Positions 1 through 17,983 of a stretch of DNA of 28,588 nt are shown here, piece after piece; within the stretch, counting starts at the first letter, position 1, and each line of letters begins with the position of its first letter. The notes under the pieces were generated by a model. The model worked only from the letters and a program-made list of their open reading frames with translations, was not told the origin of the DNA and searched no databases. The position numbers were made by a program, and so were the translations under genes. Source of the stretch: a virus (Duplodnaviria; Caudoviricetes); IMG/VR virus record IMGVR_UViG_3300017910_000452, positions 1-28,588 of that record. One strand, given 5' to 3'.

Positions 1-83
1 ACTTCACGGTCTTCAATCGCATTTAAGCAGTCTTGCATGTCTTTTACCGTGTTTTCAAAACGGCAATAACTCATGTTAGGCAT
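1..83 (-). CDS. Conserved phage hypothetical protein, 5' part only (MPNMSYCRFENTVKDMQDCLNAIEDRE...)
   Basis: ATG at 83-81 after an A/T-rich leader. The frame is open to the window edge. The 'NMSYCRFENT..D..DC' N-terminus resembles a phage hypothetical family I recall. Confidence 0.75.
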   Translation of the reverse strand, partial: MPNMSYCRFENTVKDMQDCLNAIEDRE

Positions 84-101
84 AATAATTAATTTTAAAG
101 T

Positions 102-198
102 TAGAAGGCGTGATAGGAATCGAACCTATATCACTGCGCTAAGTAAACATCTTGCTAAAGCTCAGAATGCAAAGCAACAGCCCAACCATTTCACGCCT
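102..198 (-). ncRNA. tRNA-like element 1 (no D-stem, no canonical anticodon arm)
   Basis: Minus strand reads AGGCGTG-AAATGG...ATAGG-TTCGATT-CCTAT-CACGCCT-TCTA. This gives a perfect 7-bp acceptor stem, a 5-bp T-stem and a canonical T-loop. Confidence 0.75.
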
Positions 199-207
199 AG
201 TTAGACA

Positions 208-468
208 CTAATCTAGTAGTGTCATATACGCTTTAGGATTTGCTCGTCTAAACCAGTCAAGTCCTTTACGTGTAAGATCATAGTGTCCAGTCATTTGACT
301 ACCCATGATTAAGTCGTACATTGCAACTTCATTGGGTGATAGCATAGCTGACTCACCTGATAAAGGGTTAGTCACTGTTTCCCATTGCGTGTATGTGTCG
401 CCATCATACCATTTTGGTAATGGAGTTTGGCCTGTATCATTCTTCTTCCCACTCATATCCGTCGTCAA
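208..468 (-). CDS. Hypothetical protein (start may be ATG at 456)
   Basis: ORF track. It sits in a tightly packed minus-strand gene string. Confidence 0.75.
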   Translation of the reverse strand: MTTDMSGKKNDTGQTPLPKWYDGDTYTQWETVTNPLSGESAMLSPNEVAMYDLIMGSQMTGHYDLTRKGLDWFRRANPKAYMTLLD

Positions 469-889
469 TTAGTTTTTCAATTAGTTCTTGTCTTTTGTCA
501 TTGTAGTACTCTTCGTATACATTATGTACAACTTCTTGAAACTCATAGTTATCATCATTGAGTTCTTGAAAGTAAATAGTCATACCATCTGTCATAGCGT
601 CAGGCATCTTTTCAAGCCAATCGCTTTCATAATAATATATATCTTCATTGATCGATGGTCGTTGATCATCATCTGTTGCTACCCACACTTCATAACCGTC
701 AGAAGTTGTCTCTGTGTAAAACATCATGTCAGGATTTTTAGCCCAACCATCTGTAATTTCAAAGTCAAAATGGTTTTTAATACGCTCAAGCATAATATCT
801 TGATTAGTGTCATCGGCTGCAGTAACATTGTCTTCTGATAGCAATTGACGCAATAGCTCGTCGTCTAGTTTTAATTTATTATCTGTCAT
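437..889 (-). CDS. Highly acidic hypothetical protein
   Basis: 150-aa D/E-rich ORF that overlaps its neighbours by a few codons. Confidence 0.8.
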   Translation of the reverse strand: MTDNKLKLDDELLRQLLSEDNVTAADDTNQDIMLERIKNHFDFEITDGWAKNPDMMFYTETTSDGYEVWVATDDDQRPSINEDIYYYESDWLEKMPDAMTDGMTIYFQELNDDNYEFQEVVHNVYEEYYNDKRQELIEKLIDDGYEWEEE

Positions 890-1229
890 TGTTATTCCAT
901 TTAAAATAGTTTTTCATTATATACTTTAGAATATATTTTAGTCTAGATTCTTCGTTGTATATCATAATACGCTTTTTGCTTTTAGTTTCATAAAGCTTAC
1001 CGTCCCATCCAACTGCCTTATAATCAACGGTATACGTCTTGTTTATTTGGTACATTGAGTGGCAGTTTCTGTCTATACGAACATAACCTCTTTTGTAAGA
1101 ATAAAATCTTACTGGTTTTCTTCGTACTTTAAACGGTGTTTCAAAAGCTCTTGTACCATTAGCCTTCTGCCGCGAAGTCGTAATCTCGTTGATGCCCAAG
1201 TATTTCATCAACATAGCTGTGTTTTCCAT
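879..1229 (-). CDS. Basic hypothetical protein
   Basis: 116-aa ORF with an ATG start, in the minus-strand string. Confidence 0.75.
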   Translation of the reverse strand: MENTAMLMKYLGINEITTSRQKANGTRAFETPFKVRRKPVRFYSYKRGYVRIDRNCHSMYQINKTYTVDYKAVGWDGKLYETKSKKRIMIYNEESRLKYILKYIMKNYFKWNNNDR

Positions 1230-1455
1230 AATCTTTTTCTATTAAAGTTGCTATATAATTCCATGCATCGAAATCTCTTAGCTGAGAATCCAATGTAGCT
1301 TGTAATTGCTCTTTGTCAAATATACTGGCTACTTTGCCTTCGATTTGAAGTCTAGTTTTAGCCATATCGATAGATAACTGATGCATATTTGCAAAAGCTT
1401 TATCGTGCGCTTGTAATTTAGTTGTATCAGTCATTGTCATCAAATAAGTGCTCAC
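1159..1455 (-). CDS. Hypothetical protein (start may be ATG at 1440)
   Basis: ORF track. It overlaps both neighbours. Confidence 0.65.
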   Translation of the reverse strand: MSTYLMTMTDTTKLQAHDKAFANMHQLSIDMAKTRLQIEGKVASIFDKEQLQATLDSQLRDFDAWNYIATLIEKDYGKHSYVDEILGHQRDYDFAAEG

Positions 1456-1672
1456 ACCACATTACATCATAAGCGCTAAGGTTGTGTAAACTTGTATCAG
1501 AAAACGAGTGTAACGTGCGAATGTCACAAATTTTTAGTTCAGTGATAAACTTAGTTTTATCTAATTTAATGAACAAACTGCGTATTACGTGAGAATATTC
1601 ACGGTCATTAGCCTCAAGCCTTGCTTTGATATGTGGTTTAAGTCGTTGTTTAAGTGTTTTAATTTTAGTCAT
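1427..1672 (-). CDS. Hypothetical protein
   Basis: 81-aa ORF whose ATG lies 8 nt downstream of motif copy 1. Confidence 0.75.
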   Translation of the reverse strand: MTKIKTLKQRLKPHIKARLEANDREYSHVIRSLFIKLDKTKFITELKICDIRTLHSFSDTSLHNLSAYDVMWCEHLFDDND

Positions 1673-1680
1673 AATTATAT

Positions 1681-1714
1681 ATATTATCCATTAGATAATG
1701 TATTTTGTTTGTAA
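1681..1714 (-). promoter_or_regulatory. 34-bp repeated promoter-like motif, copy 1
   Basis: Minus strand TTACAAACAAAATACA-N8-TGGATAATAT, directly upstream of the ORF starting at 1672. Confidence 0.75.
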
Positions 1715-1789
1715 TCACCGTAATAAAGCTACGGCAATAAGCGATAAATAAAATAACGCTATTGTTAAAAATAATTCTCTTGTATTCAT
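1715..1789 (-). CDS. 24-aa hydrophobic peptide (MNTRELFLTIALFYLSLIAVALLR)
   Basis: Manual translation. It fills the gap exactly between tRNA-like element 2 and motif copy 1, and has one TM-like stretch. Confidence 0.5.
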   Translation of the reverse strand: MNTRELFLTIALFYLSLIAVALLR

Positions 1790-1860
1790 AGTGGACGTGG
1801 CAGGAATCGAACCTGCGTTGGTGTACTTACAACTCATACACTTCCTGACCTTTCACGCCC
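1789..1860 (-). ncRNA. tRNA-like element 2 (resembles the tmRNA tRNA-like domain; G3.U70 and A73)
   Basis: Minus strand reads GGGCGTG-AAAGGTCAGGAA-GTGTA-(11 nt loop)-TACAC-CAAC-GCAGG-TTCGATT-CCTGC-CACGTCC-ACTA. Confidence 0.8.
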
Positions 1861-1861
1861 T

Positions 1862-2111
1862 GAAGGCAGCAGTTACGGACTGGTAGTTAACTAGTATTGT
1901 CATTTATCCGCTCTTTCTGTTTTGTGCGCATCGAGCCGAACCATTATCGCCTTTAATTGCACTAACGTGACCAGTATGCCGCCGCCTCGCGCTTCACAAT
2001 CGTGCACTACTATTTCAAGCTGTGATTGTCCTTCGCACTATATAGCCACAACGCTGGTCTGCCAGCATACTCAGTGTGGCTTTGTAGTCTGCCGCTAACA
2101 GCAGCACCTTC
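1862..2111 (-). ncRNA. Unidentified structured ncRNA, ~250 nt
   Basis: No sizeable ORF and visibly GC-richer than its flanks. The terminal helix is GAAGG/CCTTC plus GTTA-G-CGG/CCG-TAAC. Internal hairpins are AGCCACA/TGTGGCT and ACAATC/GATTGT. Confidence 0.6.
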
Positions 2112-2155
2112 CAACTACTAGTAGTTAATAGTGTTTATTTAGAGAACTTTGTTAA

Positions 2156-2344
2156 CTACTTACGTCGCCAAGCTCTGTGCACACTCGCTGATACTTCTTG
2201 GCTAACGATTTGAATAGTATTGCCTGTCTTGTGCTCAATGATAGGTACATAACTGTAAGTTTGAGTGGTTGAACACTCGACACAAGTCTTGTAACCTAAG
2301 TCTATTCGCACTGGGTGCACAGAATTTCCGCATCTACAATACAT
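2156..2344 (-). CDS. Small C4 zinc-finger protein (DksA/TraR-like finger)
   Basis: CxCG...(P)xR......CVEC pattern. It lies downstream of motif copy 2. Confidence 0.6.
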   Translation of the reverse strand: MYCRCGNSVHPVRIDLGYKTCVECSTTQTYSYVPIIEHKTGNTIQIVSQEVSASVHRAWRRK

Positions 2345-2365
2345 ATTTGTTTGTTTTTGTTTATT

Positions 2366-2399
2366 ATATTATCCAGTAGTTATTGTATTTTGTTTGTAA
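2366..2399 (-). promoter_or_regulatory. 34-bp motif, copy 2
   Basis: TTACAAACAAAATACA-N8-TGGATAATAT. It overlaps the end of ORF 2380-2586. Confidence 0.75.
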
Positions 2400-2586
2400 A
2401 CCACCTGTTATATAGTATTTCAACAGTTTTAGCTGCTATAGCTTCTTGTGCTCGTAAGTATTCATCACCTTCAAGTTCGTCAAAGCTAGTTCCGTCCATA
2501 GCCCACTCTGTATTAGAGATAATGCTATCATCGATAGAATCAGCGATCCATGTCGCCATATTCTCTAGTTCTTTCATTTTACTCAT
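2380..2586 (-). CDS. Hypothetical protein
   Basis: 68-aa ORF abutting its upstream neighbour. Confidence 0.7.
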   Translation of the reverse strand: MSKMKELENMATWIADSIDDSIISNTEWAMDGTSFDELEGDEYLRAQEAIAAKTVEILYNRWFTNKIQ

Positions 2587-2587
2587 A

Positions 2588-2776
2588 TTAAAAATAGTTT
2601 ATTTTGTTATCAGAGTGAGACATCCACTCAATATTTCCAAGGTTATAACCTTCAGAGATTAAAAATTCTTCAAAATCTTCATTTTGCCAGTTTTCTATAT
2701 TTTCTGCTTCAATTTGACCTAAATTATATTGGTCAACAGAGCCATTTGCAAAGTCAAGTATAGTTATATAGTACAT
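2588..2776 (-). CDS. Acidic hypothetical protein
   Basis: 62-aa ORF with TAATG coupling to the upstream gene. Confidence 0.75.
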   Translation of the reverse strand: MYYITILDFANGSVDQYNLGQIEAENIENWQNEDFEEFLISEGYNLGNIEWMSHSDNKINYF

Positions 2777-3024
2777 TATTTTGCTATTTGTTTTAGTTGA
2801 TTAACTGAGTATTGTTTACTTGTTTCTCTCCACATACGGTTGTGTGTGAACTTTCTTGACTTAGAATAAGTCTTTTTGCCACTTACTTCGTAGCGCATAT
2901 ACTCTTTGTCAGTTAGTCCACTGCACAATCCGTCGTGAGCGTGGCGACGTCTATGCTCCGCCGCTCGCATTTTCTTTTGCTCTTCAACATAGGTGAGCAG
3001 TTCTCGCATGTTTTTAACTACCAT
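2776..3024 (-). CDS. Basic hypothetical protein
   Basis: 82-aa ORF, translationally coupled to its neighbours. Confidence 0.7.
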   Translation of the reverse strand: MVVKNMRELLTYVEEQKKMRAAEHRRRHAHDGLCSGLTDKEYMRYEVSGKKTYSKSRKFTHNRMWRETSKQYSVNQLKQIAK

Positions 3025-3215
3025 GGAAGTTCGGTTTTTTCGATGTAAGTTAAACCTTTGTAGTTAAACCAGCTAGATTTACCTTCTTGCCCGGCAGCGT
3101 TAGTAATAAAACCGAATGATGGAGGTAAGTCGCCGATTGCATAGCCTTTATACTCAACATCGCCAAGTTTAGCTAGATGAGTGTCGTATTTTTTATAGAA
3201 TTTAATTGATTGCAT
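3018..3215 (-). CDS. Hypothetical protein
   Basis: 65-aa ORF downstream of motif copy 3. Confidence 0.75.
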   Translation of the reverse strand: MQSIKFYKKYDTHLAKLGDVEYKGYAIGDLPPSFGFITNAAGQEGKSSWFNYKGLTYIEKTELPW

Positions 3216-3230
3216 AGTTTATTATTTATT

Positions 3231-3264
3231 ATATTATCCAAAGGATATTGTAATTTGTTTGTAA
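3231..3264 (-). promoter_or_regulatory. 34-bp motif, copy 3
   Basis: TTACAAACAAATTACA-N8-TGGATAATAT. Confidence 0.75.
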
Positions 3265-3265
3265 T

Positions 3266-3421
3266 TTAGTACATCTCTCCTACCCATGAAGATAGTTCTG
3301 AGTTAAATCTATCGTAGTATTCACGCTCAATTGCTTCAATTTCAGCTTTGGTAATTTTAGAAATAACCTTACGATTACTTAAGCTTCTAGCTCTTTGGTA
3401 TTTGTATAAGTCTCTTTTCAT
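3266..3421 (-). CDS. Hypothetical protein (51 aa, MKRDLYKYQR...)
   Basis: C-terminal part of track ORF 3266-3538. The ATG at 3421 follows the stop of 3423-3692 by 1 nt and removes a long overlap. Confidence 0.65.
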   Translation of the reverse strand: MKRDLYKYQRARSLSNRKVISKITKAEIEAIEREYYDRFNSELSSWVGEMY

Positions 3422-3422
3422 A

Positions 3423-3692
3423 TTAATCTCCTGTATAAGAGCCAGGTGTTTTGGCTTTTTCATCATAATAAGCTTGCGCTGCTTTGTTAGAAAGCTCTCG
3501 TCTAGCTTCATATTCCGCTTTATGGTCAAGAAAGTCATCGATACGCTCTTTCATTTCTTGTTCGGTTTGTGAAGTTAATCTAGTAACATAGTATGGAAAC
3601 TCACCGAAAGCTTCGCATGAATAGCCACTTGCTGATTTACCAGTGTAAGTAGTCCACTCGTTATATTCGTAAGGTATATTTCTGTGTTGCAT
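3423..3692 (-). CDS. Hypothetical protein
   Basis: 89-aa ORF with ATG start and A-rich leader. Confidence 0.75.
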   Translation of the reverse strand: MQHRNIPYEYNEWTTYTGKSASGYSCEAFGEFPYYVTRLTSQTEQEMKERIDDFLDHKAEYEARRELSNKAAQAYYDEKAKTPGSYTGD

Positions 3693-3703
3693 AGTTAGTT
3701 ATT

Positions 3704-3838
3704 TTAAAAGATTCCAAAATTAGCGTTTAAATCACCTTGTGCAAACTTAAGTATTAAGCCAATAATGCCAAGTGATGCTAGTGTTACATAGCCATAAACG
3801 ACTACTTTTAGAATTGTATAGTGATTAAATTTTCGCAT
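3704..3838 (-). CDS. 44-aa single-TM membrane protein (MRKFNHYTILKVVVYGYVTLASLGIIGLILKFAQGDLNANFGIF)
   Basis: Manual translation. The ATG is 12 nt downstream of motif copy 4. Confidence 0.65.
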   Translation of the reverse strand: MRKFNHYTILKVVVYGYVTLASLGIIGLILKFAQGDLNANFGIF

Positions 3839-3840
3839 AA

Positions 3841-3981
3841 TTATTTTATATTATTATCCATTAGTAATTGTAATTTGTTTGTAAGTTCTTCACGTCTTTG
3901 TTTAGACTGTGGAGTGATATTGAAGTTTGCTTCAAACTCATTTATCAATTGTAGTTCATTAAATATTTTATCTATAGTCAT
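3841..3981 (-). CDS. 46-aa hypothetical protein (MTIDKIFNELQLINEFEANFNITPQSKQRREELTNKLQLLMDNNIK)
   Basis: Manual translation. It follows tRNA-like element 3, and its 3' end encodes motif copy 4. Confidence 0.6.
   Translation of the reverse strand: MTIDKIFNELQLINEFEANFNITPQSKQRREELTNKLQLLMDNNIK
3851..3884 (-). promoter_or_regulatory. 34-bp motif, copy 4
   Basis: TTACAAACAAATTACA-N8-TGGATAATAA. Confidence 0.75.
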
Positions 3982-4003
3982 AATTGTAATTTTAAAAAGT
4001 TAG

Positions 4004-4076
4004 TAGTAGTCACGGTGAGAATCGAACTCACGTTTAGTAGTAGATTCTAGATTATCTCTCTAAACCCATTGTGACT
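4004..4076 (-). ncRNA. tRNA-like element 3 (no D-stem)
   Basis: Minus strand reads AGTCACA-ATGG-GTTTAG...CTAAAC-GTGAG-TTCGATT-CTCAC-CGTGACT-ACTA. The acceptor has 6 bp plus one A.C pair, and the T-stem has 5 bp. Confidence 0.7.
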
Positions 4077-4151
4077 TAGCTAGTTCAACATTATTTATAC
4101 TGGTGATGGTACTAGTCGGAACGCGCCAGTGAGTTCAAATGAAGAAGTTAA

Positions 4152-4388
4152 TTAAATAACTTCAACATTTTGTAGAACTTTAGGAATTGAAGTGGAAGAA
4201 GTATAAGATTTATATTTTTCCCAGCAATTTAATTTAGTTAAATTATCTTTCATTAGTTCAAAAGCTTTATCATGATTGTATTTGAAAGTTTTACCACTTT
4301 TGAAAGTGACTTCAATAATAGTATTTTGACCTATTAATGATTTGCGAATGACGAAGCGTTTTGATTGAATTGAGTTTGAATTTTGCAT
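4152..4388 (-). CDS. Hypothetical protein
   Basis: 78-aa ORF downstream of motif copy 5. Confidence 0.75.
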   Translation of the reverse strand: MQNSNSIQSKRFVIRKSLIGQNTIIEVTFKSGKTFKYNHDKAFELMKDNLTKLNCWEKYKSYTSSTSIPKVLQNVEVI

Positions 4389-4422
4389 AGTTATTATATT
4401 TAAAAGTTATTATTAATTTATA

Positions 4423-4456
4423 TTATTATCCAGTTTAGTTTGTATTTAGTTTGTAA
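4423..4456 (-). promoter_or_regulatory. 34-bp motif, copy 5
   Basis: TTACAAACTAAATACA-N8-TGGATAATAA. Confidence 0.75.
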
Positions 4457-4507
4457 GTGTATATTTGTTTAGTATTTAAAAATTAGTTAGAGTTATAACA
4501 CTGAACT

Positions 4508-4639
4508 TCATTGTCTATTAATTATTTTATTTAGTTCAATATCTACAAGTTCAGATATTTCATCATTAGTTAAATGATTATATTCTTGTATAAAATCTGT
4601 GAATATATCTTCTCGTAGTGTATCAATGTCGTAATTCAT
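4508..4639 (-). CDS. 43-aa acidic hypothetical protein (MNYDIDTLREDIFTDFIQEYNHLTNDEISELVDIELNKIINRQ)
   Basis: Manual translation. It lies downstream of motif copy 6. Confidence 0.6.
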   Translation of the reverse strand: MNYDIDTLREDIFTDFIQEYNHLTNDEISELVDIELNKIINRQ

Positions 4640-4662
4640 ATTAGTATTTTTTAGTTACATTA

Positions 4663-4696
4663 TTATTATCCAAATTGACTTGTATTTTGTCTGTAA
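4663..4696 (-). promoter_or_regulatory. 34-bp motif, copy 6
   Basis: TTACAGACAAAATACA-N8-TGGATAATAA. Confidence 0.75.
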
Positions 4697-4701
4697 AAGT
4701 A

Positions 4702-4854
4702 TTACGATAGTAAGTACTCTTGACAAAGTGCAAATGATTCCTGGTCATCAGGTGTTGGCATGTCAGCCGGTTCACAGATCAGGTGACCGTTATAGTCTAC
4801 AATCTGTAGTCTGTCACCGGTAAGAGAGCAAGTAAAGGTACGTAGTATAGTCAT
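4702..4854 (-). CDS. 50-aa hypothetical protein (MTILRTFTCSLTGDRLQIVDYNGHLICEPADMPTPDDQESFALCQEYLLS)
   Basis: Manual translation. It is the first gene of the leftward arm, downstream of motif copy 7. Confidence 0.6.
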   Translation of the reverse strand: MTILRTFTCSLTGDRLQIVDYNGHLICEPADMPTPDDQESFALCQEYLLS

Positions 4855-4874
4855 GTTGTTAAGTATTTACATCT

Positions 4875-4908
4875 ATATTATCCGGATTAGTTAGTAGTAC
4901 GTCTGTAA
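4875..4908 (-). promoter_or_regulatory. 34-bp motif, copy 7 (degenerate)
   Basis: TTACAGACGTACTACT-N8-CGGATAATAT, with the same spacing as the other copies. Confidence 0.6.
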
Positions 4909-5070
4909 AAAGTCAAACACCGGGGCGTAATATACTGAAAATCAAGGGTATATACGCAAAAATCTGGGAAAACTGGTGGGGCCCGTAAAACTAAAATCGT
5001 TTTTGTAAAACGTTGATAATCAGTACGATAGGGGGTAACACTATACTCCTAAATATCTAACGACTTTTTT

Positions 5071-5117
5071 TGTGACACTAGCCTTATAAGTAGTATTAGT
5101 AACAGGCTTATGTCACA
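5071..5117. repeat. Imperfect inverted repeat in the divergent intergenic region
   Basis: TGTGACActAGCCT-(19 nt)-AGGCTtaTGTCACA, 12 of 14 positions complementary. Confidence 0.7.
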
Positions 5118-5182
5118 CTTAGGTAAAAAAACAGCGAAATCTGTAAGTATATATCTTATAAACGAATTTTAAAAATAAGTAT

Positions 5183-7357
5183 ATGGCTATTATTTATTCA
5201 TACCCGTACGTAAGCACGGTAAATAACTCAGATACACTAGTAATAAGCGTGTCAGATACTACAGCAGACAACGGGTTTTTAACTAAAAGCCTTACTGCAG
5301 ACAATTTAGCATCGTATGTGACAGCTCGCGTTAATCTAAACTTCTTAGGAGACACTGGCACGGGCATTGTAAATCTTGATACACAAAACTTAAGTATTAC
5401 AGGTACTGCAAATGAGATAGAAACAGCAGCAAGCAGTCAAACTCTACAAATCGGACTGCCAGACAGCGTAACAATAACAGATGATTTAACAGTAGGACAA
5501 GGTGTTAGCGGTAGTATCACCGTTGGAGATAGCGGTTCTCAAAGCTCGATAGCAGGTTTTTTAAATTTAGACGAAGTATTTGTTAATGACATGCTAGAAG
5601 TAGATGGTGACACTATACTTAACAACGATCTTGATGTAAGTGGTAACGCTGAAATTGGCGGGTCACTAAACATGACATTAAGTAGAATTAACAATGTTCT
5701 TAATCCTACTCAACCTCAAGATGCTGCAACAAAACAATATGTTGATACAGCTGTAACTGGTTTACTAGAATTTAAAGGTACATTTAGAGCTGACAGTGGT
5801 TTAATACTTTCTGGTACAAACGCCGGCGCTTACATATACAATTGCCCAGGTGGTGCAGGTACAAGAGTTGCTATTGCTATAGGTGATTATTACATCGTAG
5901 CAAACACTGGCGGCCAATTTTATTGTTCAGGTGATTTGTTACAAGTAGGAGATTCTATAGTAGCTTCTCAAGATGCAGCTGCTGATAGTTCAACAGTAAA
6001 CGACTGGGGAATATTAGAGGGTAATAATGTAGAAGGTACAGGTCTTGCTAACACAATACCGCTTTGGACAGACAGCCAAGTTCTTGGTGATAGTAATATT
6101 ACTCAAAATCCTGGTGGATCAATTACAATATCAGAAAATCTATTAGTTGATCAAAAAGAAATTGAAGCTGGCACAATGATTATTAACGGTGTTGCTGAAA
6201 TAACTGGTGAACTTGATAAAGCAAATTCCAAAATAATAGGTTTAGCAGATCCTACTGCAGCTCAAGATGCAGCTACAAAAGCTTACGTTGATGCTTCTGG
6301 TGTAAATGGAACCGGCACAACTAACACTTTGCCAGTATGGTCAGATGGGCCGGCGGGCGCTTTAAGTGATTCAGCTGTAACTCAAATAGTAGATGGCGGC
6401 GGTAATGTTACTGGAGTTAGAATATTTAATCTTCCTGGAAATAATTACTTTTTTGGAGGAAATGAATTTTCTTCTAGTGATTTTAATTTTAAATCAAACG
6501 GGCTTAGTGGTGGTTTTTATAGATCAGGTAATTTTAGATTTGAAAACAACTTAGCTGTCGGTAGAACAAACGATCCATTAATTGCAAGATTAGATGTAGG
6601 AACTTCAGCAGATTCTATACCAGCCGCTTTTTTTAGAAACGGTGTTGTAGTATCAAATAATCCAGCAGGTGTTCAAGTTGATAACACATCGATGGTAATT
6701 GGTGCTGGTAATAACGATAACGTTACAGGTTCTGATCACTGTTTGATTGTAGGTAGTGGTAACCAAATTACTAGTAACTCAGATCAATCAGTTGCTTTTG
6801 GACAAGGAAACACTATAACAAGTTCAATTGATTCTTTAGCTGTAGGTAATAGTAATACCATAAGCTCCGCGCAAAGAACATATGCGTTAGGTTTTAGTAA
6901 CGATATTTCGTCAGCGTCCAGTTTTGTAGCTGGTGGCGATAACACAGTAGGTAGCGGAAACACAAAAATAGTACTTGGTTATAACAACTCGTCAACTGGT
7001 AACGATACTTTTGTTATTGGTAACGAACTAACTGGCGCTGATGGAACTATGGTGTTAGGATATAGAAATCGCCCAGCAGATTATCCAACTCCTGATAAAA
7101 ATCAAGGTTTAGGTGAAACTAAACTTGTAATAGCAGTTGGATCTGGCACCAACGCTCCAGCAAAAAATAACGCAATTATAATAACTGAAGGTGGTGTTAA
7201 TGGTGGTAATAGCGGAACTGTGCCACAAGTACCAAGAGTTATATTACCAACAGTAGTAGATTTTAATTTTGCAGATGATACAGCTGCTGCTGCTGGTGGT
7301 ATACCAGTTGGTGGTTTATACCATAACGCTGGAGCATTAAGAATAAGACTTACGTAA
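5183..7357 (+). CDS. Tail fibre/spike-like virion protein
   Basis: 724 aa, G/T/S/N-rich. It has two 'PT..QDAATK.YVD' and two 'GTG..NT.P.W' motifs, and C-terminal 'G..N' repeats like trimeric adhesin beta-roll heads. Confidence 0.7.
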   Translation: MAIIYSYPYVSTVNNSDTLVISVSDTTADNGFLTKSLTADNLASYVTARVNLNFLGDTGTGIVNLDTQNLSITGTANEIETAASSQTLQIGLPDSVTITDDLTVGQGVSGSITVGDSGSQSSIAGFLNLDEVFVNDMLEVDGDTILNNDLDVSGNAEIGGSLNMTLSRINNVLNPTQPQDAATKQYVDTAVTGLLEFKGTFRADSGLILSGTNAGAYIYNCPGGAGTRVAIAIGDYYIVANTGGQFYCSGDLLQVGDSIVASQDAAADSSTVNDWGILEGNNVEGTGLANTIPLWTDSQVLGDSNITQNPGGSITISENLLVDQKEIEAGTMIINGVAEITGELDKANSKIIGLADPTAAQDAATKAYVDASGVNGTGTTNTLPVWSDGPAGALSDSAVTQIVDGGGNVTGVRIFNLPGNNYFFGGNEFSSSDFNFKSNGLSGGFYRSGNFRFENNLAVGRTNDPLIARLDVGTSADSIPAAFFRNGVVVSNNPAGVQVDNTSMVIGAGNNDNVTGSDHCLIVGSGNQITSNSDQSVAFGQGNTITSSIDSLAVGNSNTISSAQRTYALGFSNDISSASSFVAGGDNTVGSGNTKIVLGYNNSSTGNDTFVIGNELTGADGTMVLGYRNRPADYPTPDKNQGLGETKLVIAVGSGTNAPAKNNAIIITEGGVNGGNSGTVPQVPRVILPTVVDFNFADDTAAAAGGIPVGGLYHNAGALRIRLT

Positions 7358-7756: not shown

Positions 7757-9313
7757 ATGTCAGACAAAATTGTCAAAAACCTTAACTTTGGGGAAGACGC
7801 AAAGAATAAGGTGTTTAAAGGTATAGAAAAACTCACAAAAGCTGTTAGCTCCACACTTGGAGCTAGCGGCCAATGTGTTATTTTAGAAGACGATCAGGGT
7901 AAACCTGTCATTACAAAAGACGGTGTAACTGTTGCAAACAGTATTATACTGCTAGACCCGGTAGAAAATATGGGTGCTACGCTTTTAAAAGAAGCTGCTA
8001 GAAAAACTGTGCAAGAAGCTGGCGATGGAACGACAACAGCTACAGTACTAGCGCACTCAATTTTAACAGAGGCCTATAAAAATTTAGATAAAGATAATAC
8101 CCGTAACATTAAAGAAGGTATAAATAAAGCCGTTAATAATGTTATTAAATACCTAGAGAAAAAAGCAATACCAGTTGAAGGTACTATGCTTGATGATGTT
8201 GCTACAATTAGTTGTAACAATGATAAAGAACTAGGTAAAATAATAGGGGAAGCGTTTAAAGCTGCTGGTGAAAACGGTGTTGTTGTAATGGAGCCAACAA
8301 CCGAAGATACTACAGAGCTTGAGTTAGTTGACGGCGTTCAATACGAGAAAGGTTTAACTAACTCACATTTTGTAACAAGCAAAGATAAGCGAGTAGCTGA
8401 GCTTGATAATCCATTAGTATTACTACTTGAGTCACCTGTAGAGTCTGTACGTAAGATACAGTCGGTGCTAGAGTATGTAATTAAAAATAAAAAACCTTTA
8501 CTTATTATTGGTGATTTAGAAACTGAAGTGTTAGCAACGCTAGCAATGAATAGAGTTAAAGGTAATATAAAAGTTAATGTAGTAAACGCGCCTACATACG
8601 GTATAAATAAGAAAGATATGCTTTCTGATTTAGCCACACTTACTGGCGCTACTGTTGTTAACGAAGATCTTGGTGATGACTTAGATGTTATCAACCCTGA
8701 TTTTTTAGGTACGTGCTATAAAAGTATTACCAATGACACAGAAACTATATTACAAGTAGATACATCTACTGATGAAATAAAAGAATTAATTAGTTCAGTA
8801 AAAGATTTAATAGCTAAAGCTAAAGCACCGGGTGAAGTTATACGTCTTGAAAAACGTTTAGCTAGACTTTCAGGTAAAGTGTCGGTTGTAAAAGTTGGAG
8901 CAAATTCAGAGATTGAATTAAAAGAAAAATCGGATAGGGTCGAAGATGCTATCTGTGCTACTAAAGCCGCGGTAAAAGAAGGTATAGTATCAGGAGGTGG
9001 TATAGCCTTGCTCGATGCATCTAATAAAACCAAAGCCAAGAGCGTTGGTGAAAAGATTCTTCTTGAAGCTATTAAAGCACCGTTTAAAACTATACTAAAT
9101 AATGCTGGACTGGAAGAGGTTGGTACGCCCGAAGAAGGTATGGGTGTTAATGTAATTACAGGTGATATTGTAAATATGATTGATAAAGGTATTATTGATC
9201 CTTTGCTTGTAACTAAAAGCGCACTCAAACACGCGGCTTCAGTGGCTACCACTATATTGTCTACAGATTGTGTAATCAATAATTTAAGAGTTGGTGATGA
9301 AAGCAATAGGTAG
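7757..9313 (+). CDS. groEL: Phage-encoded group I chaperonin GroEL
   Basis: Motifs [52 protein letters not shown] and GIIDP..V.KSAL. Confidence 0.97.
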
Positions 9314-9560
9314 AAATATAATTATAAAAAAGAAAAAAGAAGATACCGTTAAAAAAACAGACGGTGGTCTTATGTTAACTGGCAAACAGCGAGTTGATGT
9401 ACGTTACAAAGAAGCAACTGTACTTCATTGTGGTGATGATGTTAAAGGTATAGAAGAAGGTAAAACTATATTCTACGATAAAAACGCAAGTCATCGTCTT
9501 GAAGTTGGTAAAGAAGTTTTCCATGTTATACGTGATATTGATGTAGTTGTTATATTATGA
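9297..9560 (+). CDS. groES: Co-chaperonin GroES
   Basis: [10 protein letters not shown]...KKTDGGLML (mobile loop)...V...G..V..I.EG..I.Y...VIRDIDVVVIL. It overlaps the groEL stop; ATG at 9297. Confidence 0.85.
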   Translation: MKAIGRNIIIKKKKEDTVKKTDGGLMLTGKQRVDVRYKEATVLHCGDDVKGIEEGKTIFYDKNASHRLEVGKEVFHVIRDIDVVVIL

Positions 9561-14706: not shown

Positions 14707-14933
14707 TGAGTACTGTTATAAGAAAAATCAGTATTGGTTCTGATTATAAGAATGATGCTATGCACTACGCGTTAGGTCAGCAAGTCTACGGTGGTCATGA
14801 GATATCACACATTCTGTTTGAAGACGAAGACGCTTCTTATAACATATTCATAAAGAAAAACAATGAGGTATTGCCATGGAAGAAATTTAATTCTAACATG
14901 GCTATATCCGTTGAATATGATTTAGAATATTAA
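14706..14933 (+). CDS. Hypothetical protein
   Basis: 75 aa, TAATG coupling on both sides. Confidence 0.8.
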   Translation: MSTVIRKISIGSDYKNDAMHYALGQQVYGGHEISHILFEDEDASYNIFIKKNNEVLPWKKFNSNMAISVEYDLEY

Positions 14934-15538
14934 TGAAAAGCGTTTTTGATTTTATAGTTATACCAGACGGAAAAAGGTATAACAATGAAGTTGATATAAA
15001 CGGCGATAAACTTATAGTTAATTCTAGCATAGAAAACTTTAAGCTTATAAACAGAACAGCAATGGTACTTACTGTGCCAACTGCTTTTGAGACGCCAATA
15101 CAAGAAGGTGATAAAGTAATTATACACCACAATGTATTTAGAAGATATTATAACCATCAAGGTAAAGAAGTTGATAGTAGTAAAACATTTGACGATAATA
15201 GGTACTTATGTCAATACGATCAAATATATCTTTACAAACGTATGGTAAAATGGTTACCAGTTCGTGATCATTGTTTTATTATACCGATAAAAAATAATGA
15301 CGCTTGGTCCCAAGAACCAGAGCAAAAGAATAAAGGTATAGTAAAAATAGGTAATAAAACCTTAGAGTCACTTGGTATATACGAGGGTGATTTAGTTGGT
15401 TTTAAATCAAATAGAGAGTTTGAGTTTATTATAGATAAACAAAGACTATATTGTATGCAATCAAATGATATTTTAGTTAAGTATGAGTTCAAAGGAGACG
15501 AGGAAGAATATAATCCAAGCTGGGCGAAAAGCAGTTGA
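14933..15538 (+). CDS. Tandem GroES-like protein
   Basis: Both halves carry a GroES-like pattern: 'A.V..VP....I.EGDKV', and 'PVRDHCFI.P...KGIV..G....GI.EGD.V.F....E.EF.ID...LY.M...DIL'. Confidence 0.65.
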   Translation: MKSVFDFIVIPDGKRYNNEVDINGDKLIVNSSIENFKLINRTAMVLTVPTAFETPIQEGDKVIIHHNVFRRYYNHQGKEVDSSKTFDDNRYLCQYDQIYLYKRMVKWLPVRDHCFIIPIKNNDAWSQEPEQKNKGIVKIGNKTLESLGIYEGDLVGFKSNREFEFIIDKQRLYCMQSNDILVKYEFKGDEEEYNPSWAKSS

Positions 15539-15758: not shown

Positions 15759-17983
15759 TGTACGAACAGTCTTTAGTAAAAGTAATAAAAGACCACATTA
15801 AGCCTAAAGTTTTAAAAAGAAATAATAGGTATAAAAAATGGGAGTATGGTTACGACGTTGAAAATGACGTTGTTGTTATTAGTAAAGACGGTACAATAGG
15901 TGATGTGATTGAAATACAAAACCTTAAAATAGCTTTACCAGCTATACCTGATAATGTTTATGCTGCGTCTGATAAAATAGAAGATCAACGCTGGACTAAA
16001 TCAGAATACCCTAAACCATTAGCTAAAATTAAAAGTGTATTTGACTGGGAAAGATACCCGGTTAATTTTAAAGAAGAATGGTACGATTATATCGACGAAG
16101 AGTTTAAAAGACGTGAAGAAGGATATTGGTTCTATAATAGAGGCGTGGCTACTTACATTACTGGTTCTCACTATATGTTCTTGCAGTGGAGCAAAATTGA
16201 CGTTGGTGCCGCAGATTACAGAGAGTCAAATAGGCTTTTCTTTATATTCTGGGAAGCATGTAAAGCCGACCAGCGATGTTATGGTATGTGCTACCTCAAA
16301 AACAGACGCTCTGGTTTTTCATTCATGGCATCATCAGAACTTGTGCATCAAGCAACAATATCTTCCGACTCACGCTTTGGGATATTATCAAAATCAGGGG
16401 CTGACGCTAAAAAAATGTTTACCGACAAAGTTGTACCCATATCAGTCAACTATCCGTTCTTTTTCAAACCCATACAAGATGGTATGGACAGACCAAAGAC
16501 GGAGCTCGCCTACAGGGTACCAGCGTCAAAACTCACGAGGCGTAAACTCGACCAAGGCGAAACGCCAGAGGAACTCGACGGTCTCGACACAACGATCGAC
16601 TGGAAGAACACAGGTGACAACTCGTATGACGGTGAGAAACTCAAACTTCTCGCCCACGACGAATCAGGTAAGTGGGAGCGTCCGGATAACATTTTAAATA
16701 ACTGGCGAGTTACAAAAACAACATTAAGATTAGGTAGTAAAGTTGTTGGTAAGTGTATGATGGGCTCAACAAGCAACGCTCTTGATAAAGGTGGCGATAA
16801 CTTTAAAAAATTATATTATGCATCAGACGTCACACAAAGAAACCGCAATGGACAGACTAGCTCGGGATTATATAGTTTGTTCATACCTATGGAATGGAAC
16901 TACGAAGGATTCATCGATTCTTATGGCGTACCTGTATTCGACTCACCGAAAGACGCAGTTAAAGATGCGCAGGGTGACTTAATTACAACTGGCGTTATAG
17001 AACATTGGGAAAACGAAGTTGATGGTCTTAAAGATGATCAGGACAGTTTAAATGAATATTATCGTCAGTTTCCTCGTACAGAGAAACATGCATTTAGAGA
17101 TGAAGCAAAATTATCTTTATTTAATCTAACTAAGATTTACGAGCAAATAGATCATAATGAAGATATGAAAAACAAAACATCAGTCACAAAAGGTAACTTT
17201 CAATGGACTGGTGGTATTAAAGATACAACTGTAAATTTTGTACCTGATAATAACGGTAGATTTTTAGTTTCATGGATTCCACCTATAAATCTACAAAATC
17301 GTGTAATAATAAAAAATGGAGTGAAGTTTCCAGGTAATGATCACGTAGGAGCTTTTGGTTGTGATAGTTACGATATATCTGGTACAGTAGATAAACGCGG
17401 TTCAAAAGGATCGTTACACGGTTTAACTAAATTCAGCATGGAGCAAGCTCCTTACAATATGTTCTTTTTAGAATATATATCAAGACCTCCAACAGCTGAG
17501 ATATTCTTTGAAGATGTTTTGATGGCATTGCATTTTTATGGCATGCCAATACTTGCAGAGAATAACAAACCTCGACTATTGTATTATTTAAAACGTAGAG
17601 GTTATAGAAAATTTTCAATGAACAGACCAGATAAAATATACAATAAACTGTCTGTTGCAGAAAGAGAAATAGGTGGTATACCTAATTCAAGTGAAGATAT
17701 TAAGCAAGCTCACGCCGCTGCTATAGAATCATATATAGAAAACCACGTGGGTTTAAATGAAAATGGATATGGTGATATGTATTTTCAAAGAACATTAGAA
17801 GACTGGGCAAAGTTTAACATAAACAATAGAACAAAGTTTGATGCAACGATTAGTTCTGGCTTAGCTATAATGGCATGTAATAAAAATAAATACACACCAG
17901 TAAACATACAACAAAGAGATCCAGTTAACATATCGTTTAAGAAATATGATAACACAGGTTACATTTCAAAAATAATACAATAG
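15758..17983 (+). CDS. terL: Terminase large subunit
   Basis: Walker A-like KNRRSGFS, Walker B LLAHDE, motif III GSTSN, nuclease FGCDSYD and a C-terminal D. It precedes the portal gene. Confidence 0.9.
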   Translation: MYEQSLVKVIKDHIKPKVLKRNNRYKKWEYGYDVENDVVVISKDGTIGDVIEIQNLKIALPAIPDNVYAASDKIEDQRWTKSEYPKPLAKIKSVFDWERYPVNFKEEWYDYIDEEFKRREEGYWFYNRGVATYITGSHYMFLQWSKIDVGAADYRESNRLFFIFWEACKADQRCYGMCYLKNRRSGFSFMASSELVHQATISSDSRFGILSKSGADAKKMFTDKVVPISVNYPFFFKPIQDGMDRPKTELAYRVPASKLTRRKLDQGETPEELDGLDTTIDWKNTGDNSYDGEKLKLLAHDESGKWERPDNILNNWRVTKTTLRLGSKVVGKCMMGSTSNALDKGGDNFKKLYYASDVTQRNRNGQTSSGLYSLFIPMEWNYEGFIDSYGVPVFDSPKDAVKDAQGDLITTGVIEHWENEVDGLKDDQDSLNEYYRQFPRTEKHAFRDEAKLSLFNLTKIYEQIDHNEDMKNKTSVTKGNFQWTGGIKDTTVNFVPDNNGRFLVSWIPPINLQNRVIIKNGVKFPGNDHVGAFGCDSYDISGTVDKRGSKGSLHGLTKFSMEQAPYNMFFLEYISRPPTAEIFFEDVLMALHFYGMPILAENNKPRLLYYLKRRGYRKFSMNRPDKIYNKLSVAEREIGGIPNSSEDIKQAHAAAIESYIENHVGLNENGYGDMYFQRTLEDWAKFNINNRTKFDATISSGLAIMACNKNKYTPVNIQQRDPVNISFKKYDNTGYISKIIQ
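16113..16697 (+). CDS. Candidate overprinted lipoprotein in the +1 frame of terL
   Basis: Open frame 16035-16697. GTG at 16113 gives MKKDIGSIIEAWLLTLLVLTICSC. terL codon usage shifts over the overlap. Confidence 0.4.
   Translation: MKKDIGSIIEAWLLTLLVLTICSCSGAKLTLVPQITESQIGFSLYSGKHVKPTSDVMVCATSKTDALVFHSWHHQNLCIKQQYLPTHALGYYQNQGLTLKKCLPTKLYPYQSTIRSFSNPYKMVWTDQRRSSPTGYQRQNSRGVNSTKAKRQRNSTVSTQRSTGRTQVTTRMTVRNSNFSPTTNQVSGSVRITF

Follow-up and report, generated by a model that had tools for sequence, protein, structure and literature searches.

By its predicted structure, element 2, a 72-nt stretch of phage DNA at positions 1789-1860 on the minus strand (ACTA end included), belongs to the class of tmRNAs that consist of a tRNA-like domain (TLD) without a coding sequence (CDS), and is neither a standard tmRNA nor a tRNA. 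The CDS-less, TLD-only class is known; what is new here is the size of the family to which the element belongs (at least 87 distinct sequences), the family's altered D-loop, and its swappable central arm together with an adjoining cassette of RNA modules. In a proposal that we regard as evenly balanced, element 2 would compete with the host tmRNA at SmpB, EF-Tu and stalled ribosomes, with the result that fewer proteins are tagged for degradation.

Structure and setting of element 2

The DNA analyzed here in full (the window) is a 28,588-base record of a marine phage, approximately 46% complete. Small genes on the minus strand occupy positions 1-4900, and the structural genes (tail, GroEL/GroES, holin, terminase, portal and virion proteins) are encoded on the plus strand beyond position 5183. 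The window's terminase matched 87 annotated phage records, of which 86 are phages of Flavobacterium, Cellulophaga, Tenacibaculum or Maribacter with less than 60% identity (best 46%) and one is an uncultured phage with 63% identity. Because these matches are mainly to phages of the Flavobacteriaceae type, we infer a Flavobacteriaceae host. Elsewhere on the plus strand, positions 7757-9560 and 14933-15538 carry genes for GroEL and GroES as well as a longer gene of the GroES-like type, and a 220-codon open frame at 16035-16697 lies within the terminase gene in another frame, where the GC content is raised; it has no Pfam match.

A preliminary description of this DNA had proposed a stand-alone TLD with alanine identity. 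The acceptor that it named, GGGCGTG paired with CACGTCC, is present on the minus strand, with the 5′ strand G1-G7 at 1854-1860 and the 3′ strand, discriminator A73 (1792) and CTA at 1789-1799, and it contains G1-C72, G2-C71 and a G3.U70 wobble; CCA is not encoded. In the predicted fold, the acceptor is followed by the unpaired 12-nt strand that had been described, a stemless D-loop with the elbow GG (1842-1853), and then by a central helix with a 9-nt loop (1821-1841), which stands at the place of tmRNA helix H2 and is the hypervariable slot of the family. The linker CAAC (1817-1820), which retains the equivalents of A334-C335, and the T arm (1800-1816, with a 5-bp stem and the loop TTCGATT) are likewise as first reported. 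The central helix had been given as 5 bp; its five Watson-Crick pairs are present, and a sixth U.G pair makes it 6 bp in the MFE fold. The element thus has the standard one-piece order of 5′ acceptor, D-loop, closed helix, T arm and 3′ acceptor. Its inner part is the 21-nt central hairpin, and the element contains no tag-like frame. Fold, Rfam match and frame search together bear out a tmRNA-type domain without a tag frame.

Annotation misses such elements. ARAGORN calls no gene in the window, and the Rfam tmRNA model (RF00023) matches element 2 with an E-value of 5e-9 and 30.9 bits, whereas its gathering score is 47. A structural search found exactly three D-stemless elements in the window, one of them with the alanine set, where none of 300 dinucleotide shuffles held any. 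The folding z-score of element 2 is modest by itself (-1.93; 13 of 200 shuffles were equally good).

Several other identities were considered. An ordinary tRNA or pseudo-tRNA is rejected, being at odds with the ARAGORN result, the missing D stem and a loop of 9 rather than 7 nt. Standard tmRNAs (RF00023; those of Bacteroidota and of phages phi38:1 and Calle_3) share with element 2 the acceptor identity set, U6-A67 and G7-C66, the D-loop GG, the T arm and a CCA that is mostly not encoded. Element 2 differs from them in its length (72 versus ~360-410 nt), in D-loop spacing and connector, and in having no mRNA-like domain, tag frame or ring of pseudoknots. A two-piece (permuted) tmRNA does not fit the standard order and self-closing helix, nor do the cassettes hold a tag-like frame that would make them the coding piece of one; a weak permuted-tmRNA match in one relative (L039, E 0.7) is at chance level. 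The mitochondrial tmRNA model (RF02544) is unlisted in the Rfam scan of the window, in which one lower-scoring overlapping match of the same clan is left unnamed. CDS-less organellar tmRNAs (mitochondrial RF02544; the ~65-bp plastid forms of Mallomonadaceae) resemble element 2 in having no tag frame, and have been proposed to aid with incomplete mRNAs without tagging (PMC11915505). Those RNAs, mostly permuted, serve rescue in the cell to which they belong, whereas element 2 is encoded by a phage whose host cell possesses a full tmRNA. Finally, ACTA in place of ACCA does not indicate decay, as 27 of 30 tmRNAs from the host group also lack an encoded CCA. The ACTA end is common to the elements of phages DS6A, phi38:1 and Calle_3 and to true tRNAs of related phages.

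Alanine identity across the family and comparison with known tmRNAs

A first search pattern, with both ends fixed, found 27 viral stretches whose ends are nearly constant and whose inner arms are unrelated. Conservation of G3.U70 in homologues had been named as a check on the alanine reading, with a lack of conservation counting against it; two scans that left the identity bases free both show the pair to be conserved. In the T-arm scan, only the linker and T arm were fixed; 58 of its 120 loci yielded 51 distinct D-stemless elements, 49 of which have G3.U70 with A73, though 48 of the 51 have one identical acceptor and are therefore not independent, and one that is counted (L033) probably reflects a spurious pairing. 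The other 62 loci (tRNAs and others) failed the filter, including L098, which has G3.U70 with U73. The elbow GG, itself part of the filter, is present in all 51 distinct homologues. In the free-acceptor scan, the fixed parts were the start of the D-loop, the linker, the T loop and pairs 6-7, with positions 1-5 and 68-73 left free; it gave 120 loci, at least 66 of them duplicates or without a parse. G1-C72, G2-C71, G3.U70 and A73 occur together in 32 of the 34 distinct D-stemless parses, a count of 34 that includes one mis-parsed tRNA (L240). These come from loci of 33-61% GC and represent five acceptor sequences in which pairs 4-69 and 5-68 covary, and tRNA-spaced controls from the same scan have G3.U70 in 1 of 20 cases. 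Because G3.U70 and A73 are retained while neighboring pairs covary, and G3.U70 is rare in the controls, the alanine identity of the D-stemless family is likely under selection. Exceptions to the alanine set are L071 (A3-U70), L296 (U3-A70) and L098.

The rest of the fold is also conserved. In a hand-picked alignment of 17 sequences, all 204 of 204 cells are paired and 7 of 12 pairs show two-sided changes, including acceptor pairs 4-69, 5-68 and 6-67 and four of the five T pairs; this alignment and the 87-member set were chosen for G3.U70 and are no test of that pair itself. In 82 of 86 members, the inner arm is closed by a helix of 4 bp or more, compared with 33% of shuffles.

As a reference for the host group, we used 30 tmRNAs from genomes of the same order as a bin labeled Bacteroidetes. 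These have the acceptor GGGGCTG/CAGCTCC in 22 of 30, an encoded CCA in 3, D-loops of the form GG+4+GAC in 28 and GG+5+GAC in 2, and a GAC connector in all 30; the acceptor of element 2 is unlike any of them. The family D-loop is one base shorter, reading GG+3 nt+G in 74 of 87 members and in none of the 30 host-group tmRNAs, and the family connector is mostly AAC (a feature fixed by two of the search patterns). One relative, L315, has exactly the acceptor of the 22 host-group tmRNAs, and another carries a 134-nt mini-tmRNA with a host-type D-loop, G3.U70 and an encoded CCA (L253:546-679, plus strand), a possible intermediate between full and TLD-only forms. Owing to this host acceptor and this intermediate, the comparison favors descent of the family from tmRNA rather than from tRNA-Ala.

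SmpB contacts A15, U17, C18, G19 and A334 of tmRNA, with A15, U17 and A334 making up the Trp122 pocket and G19 packing on SmpB (PMC8363625). The AC before the T stem, equivalent to A334-C335, is kept in 23 of 25 members of a scan that left it free, and 85 of 86 members have a G at offset +5 or +6 relative to GG, the position that corresponds to G19. In element 2 itself, the spacing from the D-loop GG to GA is as in the host, and equivalents of U17, C18 and C21 are absent. Judged by these positions, binding of element 2 to SmpB is plausible.

In the literature searched, a TLD-only tmRNA is on record for one phage, DS6A (PMC4131195, PMC11915505). DS6A encodes little more than a TLD, and a similar RNA inhibited tmRNA whether chargeable or not, perhaps via titration of SmpB (PMC4131195). 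A 2025 database (PMC11915505) includes 9 standard genes without a CDS and credits the DS6A form with inhibiting endogenous tmRNA in E. coli; reports of tmRNA inhibition concern no form other than that of DS6A (Mao et al. 2009, as cited). SmpB titration by a phage TLD is not new, because this precedent is published. The DS6A element (JN698994.1, 28478-28560; tmID 11587) is 83 nt long, ends in ACTA and, like element 2, scores below the Rfam tmRNA threshold (43.2 versus 30.9 bits). The two further share the one-piece order, G1-C72, G2-C71, G3.U70 and A73, a stemless D-loop, one closing helix, an NCAC/NAAC linker and the T arm. DS6A differs in being a single reported case and in having GAC in its D-loop. 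The family of the window, by comparison, numbers no fewer than 87 distinct sequences; the D-loop is shortened in most of them, the central arm is exchangeable, and a cassette adjoins the element. Our searches of the literature on phage tmRNA and TLDs, DS6A, trans-translation and SmpB, and structured-RNA decoys returned no account of this family or cassette; members may be among the 79 phage entries or the 9 "standard, no CDS" entries of the database (PMC11915505).

Among cultured phages, blastn with element 2 returned one 32-nt match to the T arm only, and the five related phage records that we searched include none with a clear TLD-only element and two with full tmRNAs. Five near-complete relatives carry one or two TLDs each, with no full or coding-piece tmRNA over the cut-off and no SmpB gene, so their TLDs would depend on host SmpB. 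Across 185,579 bacterial genomes, the pattern matched three times, in each case on a short contig of a metagenome bin (one with phage-like neighbors); these are not host genes. Further family elements lie on short contigs in two bacterial metagenome bins (L154, L155, L156, L159 and L165), probably mis-binned phage DNA. Two loci also hold a second element of the D-stemless kind, which has G3.U70 with A73 but differs in its acceptor and contains an insert of 70 nt (L003:1127-1233 and L022:225-331, both plus strand).

The putative transcription unit, its module cassette and the sibling elements

Element 2 lies within what appears, from the arrangement of motifs, to be a single unit. In order, this unit comprises a promoter-like motif, a 62-aa ORF, a ~295-nt non-coding cassette, element 2, a 24-codon ORF and the next promoter-like motif. 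The tripartite, early-promoter-like motif has nine matches within positions 1-5200, seven of which are clear minus-strand copies heading small genes (4876-4908, 4664-4696, 4421-4456, 3849-3884, 3232-3264, 2367-2399 and 1682-1714). The copy at 2367-2399 would drive the ORF, cassette and element 2, and that at 1682-1714 is the next; we found no terminator-like site between these two. "Stand-alone" thus holds for element 2 as a domain and fails for its transcription, with no promoter-like repeat directly ahead and no terminator-like site behind. By these signals, element 2 has no promoter of its own and would form the 3′ end of a cassette of RNA modules with which it is transcribed.

The 62-aa ORF at the head of the unit (2156-2344, minus strand) is cysteine-rich and zinc-ribbon-like, with no Pfam family and no match among annotated phages; its nearest named Atlas cluster is zf-dksA_traR at 0.88, which is a lead only. 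Among 79 distinct upstream regions, 39 have its 3′ end at most 500 nt upstream of the element, with a cassette of 0-431 nt after it. At the other end of the unit, the last A of the ACTA end is, as had been noted, also the A of the next ATG, which opens a 24-codon hydrophobic ORF (1715-1789, minus strand; no Pfam family). This overlap is true of the window and does not hold as a family feature. It occurs in 9 of 97 element/downstream combinations, a set that includes a few ordinary tRNAs and in which the remaining downstream classes are crude. The overlapping ATGs include that of an apparent homolog, in L018, of the window's 116-aa gene, and most non-overlapping combinations have an A/T-rich leader and then an ATG shortly after. 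In several relatives the 24-codon ORF is absent and the promoter-like repeat directly follows the TLD.

Directly upstream of element 2, the non-coding cassette (1861-2157, minus strand) is predicted to be composed of structured RNA modules at 2123-2157, 2084-2119, 2044-2081 and 2002-2038, together with a scaffold at 1865-1983 that holds a nested module at 1924-1962. Cassettes of relatives are composed of recurring, nested modules, and the same modules enter the TLD. Variants of 2123-2157 and 1924-1962 lie inside the TLD in relatives, module 2084-2119 is found inside the family TLD frame of a contig from an RNA run, and one module occurs in 15 distinct contexts, three of them inside a TLD. Overall, exact words of 12 or more bases that also occur in upstream cassettes are present in 26 of 65 distinct inserts, compared with 13 of 1300 shuffles; one of the 26 is a mis-parsed partial insert, and the inserts are related to one another. 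The inner arm therefore reads as a tolerated slot that is filled with modules in relatives and nearly empty in element 2. The search for tag-like frames gave a single chance-like match over the 65 inserts and nothing in the cassettes. Neither in the window nor in 20 loci do the modules match an Rfam family, and they do not appear to be copied from the rRNA, RNase P RNA or tmRNA of the host (54 matches in sense and 52 in antisense over 408 windows at score 24, with shuffles alike). This swappable cassette is the less explained, and potentially the more surprising, part of the system. Upstream regions of L004, L020, L057, L073, L087, L098 and L104 show shuffled nested modules and larger pseudoknot-like scaffolds, again with no Rfam match.

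Contigs from 18 RNA runs contain part of positions 1500-2400, and contigs of relatives cover the region; the 24-codon ORF has near-identical sequence among them. Such contigs show neither strand, ends nor level, and DNA may be present in the libraries. Two contigs of run X2 stop at 1789 and 1790, beside the predicted 3′ cut, leaving the element uncovered. A second study differs, with X4 stopping at 1770 and X9 and X12 giving no cover; contigs of X1 and X5 cross the 3′ junction.

The other two D-stemless elements of the window, element 1 (102-198) and element 3 (4004-4076), both on the minus strand, indeed lack G3.U70, having G3-C70 with U73 and U3-A70 with A73, respectively, and hence no alanine identity. 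One ortholog of element 1 has G3.U70 with U73. It had been suggested that the copies may have different targets; elements 1 and 3 resemble exchangeable processing marks more than decoys aimed at other targets. At their gene junctions, relatives have minimal elements of ~43 nt, made up of an acceptor, a 9-nt loop with GG and a T arm (L001:1028 and 4623, L027:864 and 4654 and L030:5073, all plus strand; L018:4761, minus strand; and L054). tRNA-like processing signals such as mitochondrial tRNA punctuation and mascRNA need no aminoacylation identity. Element 2 resembles such signals in being a tRNA shape inside a longer transcript, with adjoining genes and no promoter of its own, and differs in keeping an aminoacylation identity, unlike siblings 1 and 3. 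Another tRNA-like scaffold, which lacks alanine identity, has one more hairpin ahead of the T arm and offers a variable slot of its own, occurs at L005:2831-2912 and L006:1667-1803 (both plus strand) and in the cassettes of L057, L075, L081, L098, L103 and L104, often directly upstream of the TLD.

Possible action of element 2 and alternative readings

In the mechanism that we favor over its rivals, host tRNA-processing enzymes would cut element 2 out of an early transcript, with RNase P cutting before G1, trimming of the 3′ end after A73, and addition of CCA. Alanylation by AlaRS is then quite probable. The keys for this enzyme are G3.U70 and A73 (PMC3968760). Binding to SmpB we consider slightly favored, and a net damping or diversion of trans-translation could go either way. 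A TLD with SmpB makes polyalanine without a template (PMC2481249, PMC3929946); a charged TLD with SmpB could take over the nascent chain, add alanine in the same untemplated manner, and free or stall ribosomes without a full tag. With alanine identity under selection, the RNA is probably more than an SmpB sink. Because a similar RNA inhibits tmRNA whether chargeable or not (PMC4131195), pure titration fails to explain selection on G3.U70. The strictness of this selection suggests that charging matters, which fits ribosome entry or stabilization better than passive titration. In favor of interference, the five near-complete relatives would rely on the SmpB of their host, and the full tmRNAs of the cultured relatives phi38:1 and Calle_3 show that this group of phages does handle trans-translation. 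Speaking against interference are the altered D-loop at the SmpB contact, with the GG+3 nt+G form in most members and the U17, C18 and C21 equivalents absent from element 2, as well as the counter-examples L071, L296 and L098 and the single acceptor shared by 48 of 51 elements in the T-arm scan. Also on this side, AlaRS reads the acceptor stem rather than an anticodon (PMC3985003), and convergence on G3.U70 would therefore be expected of any mimic that has no anticodon and must be charged. If these RNAs act as proposed, interference with ribosome rescue and tagging would be a common phage strategy, and the family would be a natural test set for the D-loop needs of SmpB and for untemplated alanine addition by a TLD in vivo.

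The altered SmpB loop also counts in favor of a rival reading, in which the TLD would be mainly a natural tRNA scaffold, a stable, alanylated and EF-Tu-bound chassis that displays exchangeable modules as decoys for host RNA-binding or defense proteins, with SmpB binding incidental or lost and element 2 a nearly empty chassis. The words shared between inserts and cassettes and the recurrence of one module inside and outside TLDs point the same way, as does module 2084-2119 in the TLD from an RNA run. Engineered tRNA scaffolds, which protect inserted RNAs in vivo, likewise carry foreign RNA on a replaceable arm of a tRNA frame; they are artificial, full tRNAs with the insert in the anticodon arm, whereas element 2 is natural, D-stemless and of the alanine type (PMC3753655). 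We nevertheless hold this reading to be doubtful. No module target was found, whether as an Rfam family in 20 loci or as excess similarity to host RNAs; the modules also stand free in the cassette, and so have no need of a TLD; and short, nearly empty copies are retained (the window, L005 and L220). Rather unlikely, in our view, is that element 2 serves as a punctuation mark, in which RNase P makes the 3′ end of the cassette, 3′ processing frees the downstream mRNA and the alanine identity is inherited baggage. The missing promoter and terminator would fit, as would elements 1 and 3 and the 43-nt minimal versions, which sit at the same junctions without alanine identity, and the ATG that overlaps in 9 of 97 combinations and is nearby, after an A/T-rich leader, in most others. 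Yet the siblings need no G3.U70, while this family keeps G3.U70 and A73 over five acceptor types and 33-61% GC; in several relatives a new promoter directly follows the TLD, so there is no downstream mRNA to free; and contigs from RNA runs span the 3′ junction.

Two further readings are weaker. Element 2 may be a decoy or replacement substrate for host defense nucleases that attack tmRNA or tRNA; it lies in an early, hypervariable gene region, and CoCoNuT systems carry, beside RNase domains, SmpB-like domains that are predicted to bind tmRNA (PMC11090510). This is very unlikely, as the CoCoNuT targeting is itself a prediction and element 2 offers no mimic of an anticodon loop, with its 9-nt loop and negative ARAGORN result. 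These scaffold, punctuation and nuclease-decoy readings are not mutually exclusive. A relic, be it what remains of a tRNA or tmRNA after decay or a piece of the host tmRNA gene from an integration site, might explain the sub-threshold Rfam score and the full tmRNAs of related cultured phages, and tmRNA fragments from island integration do exist (PMC4131195). It is extremely improbable and largely refuted by covariation, with both ends present and covarying. In addition, the acceptor differs from those of 30/30 host-group tmRNAs, 82 of 86 inserts are closed by a helix though their sequences are unrelated, and no integrase is found among the PHROG matches of the window's 34 ORFs, in a record that is ~46% complete.

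The interference and scaffold readings could also be joined. The alanylated, tmRNA-derived chassis and its cassette would then form a natural combinatorial RNA display of dozens of nested, recombining structured modules, every one of them a decoy aimed at some RNA-binding or defense protein of the host, with the charged chassis carrying them to EF-Tu or stalled ribosomes while adding untemplated alanine in place of a degradation tag. We put this forward as an unlikely, speculative combination. In the full, 362-nt tmRNAs of phi38:1 and Calle_3 (L338 and L339), the tag called by ARAGORN is unusually long and does not end in AA, and they may tag proteins without sending them to the usual protease.
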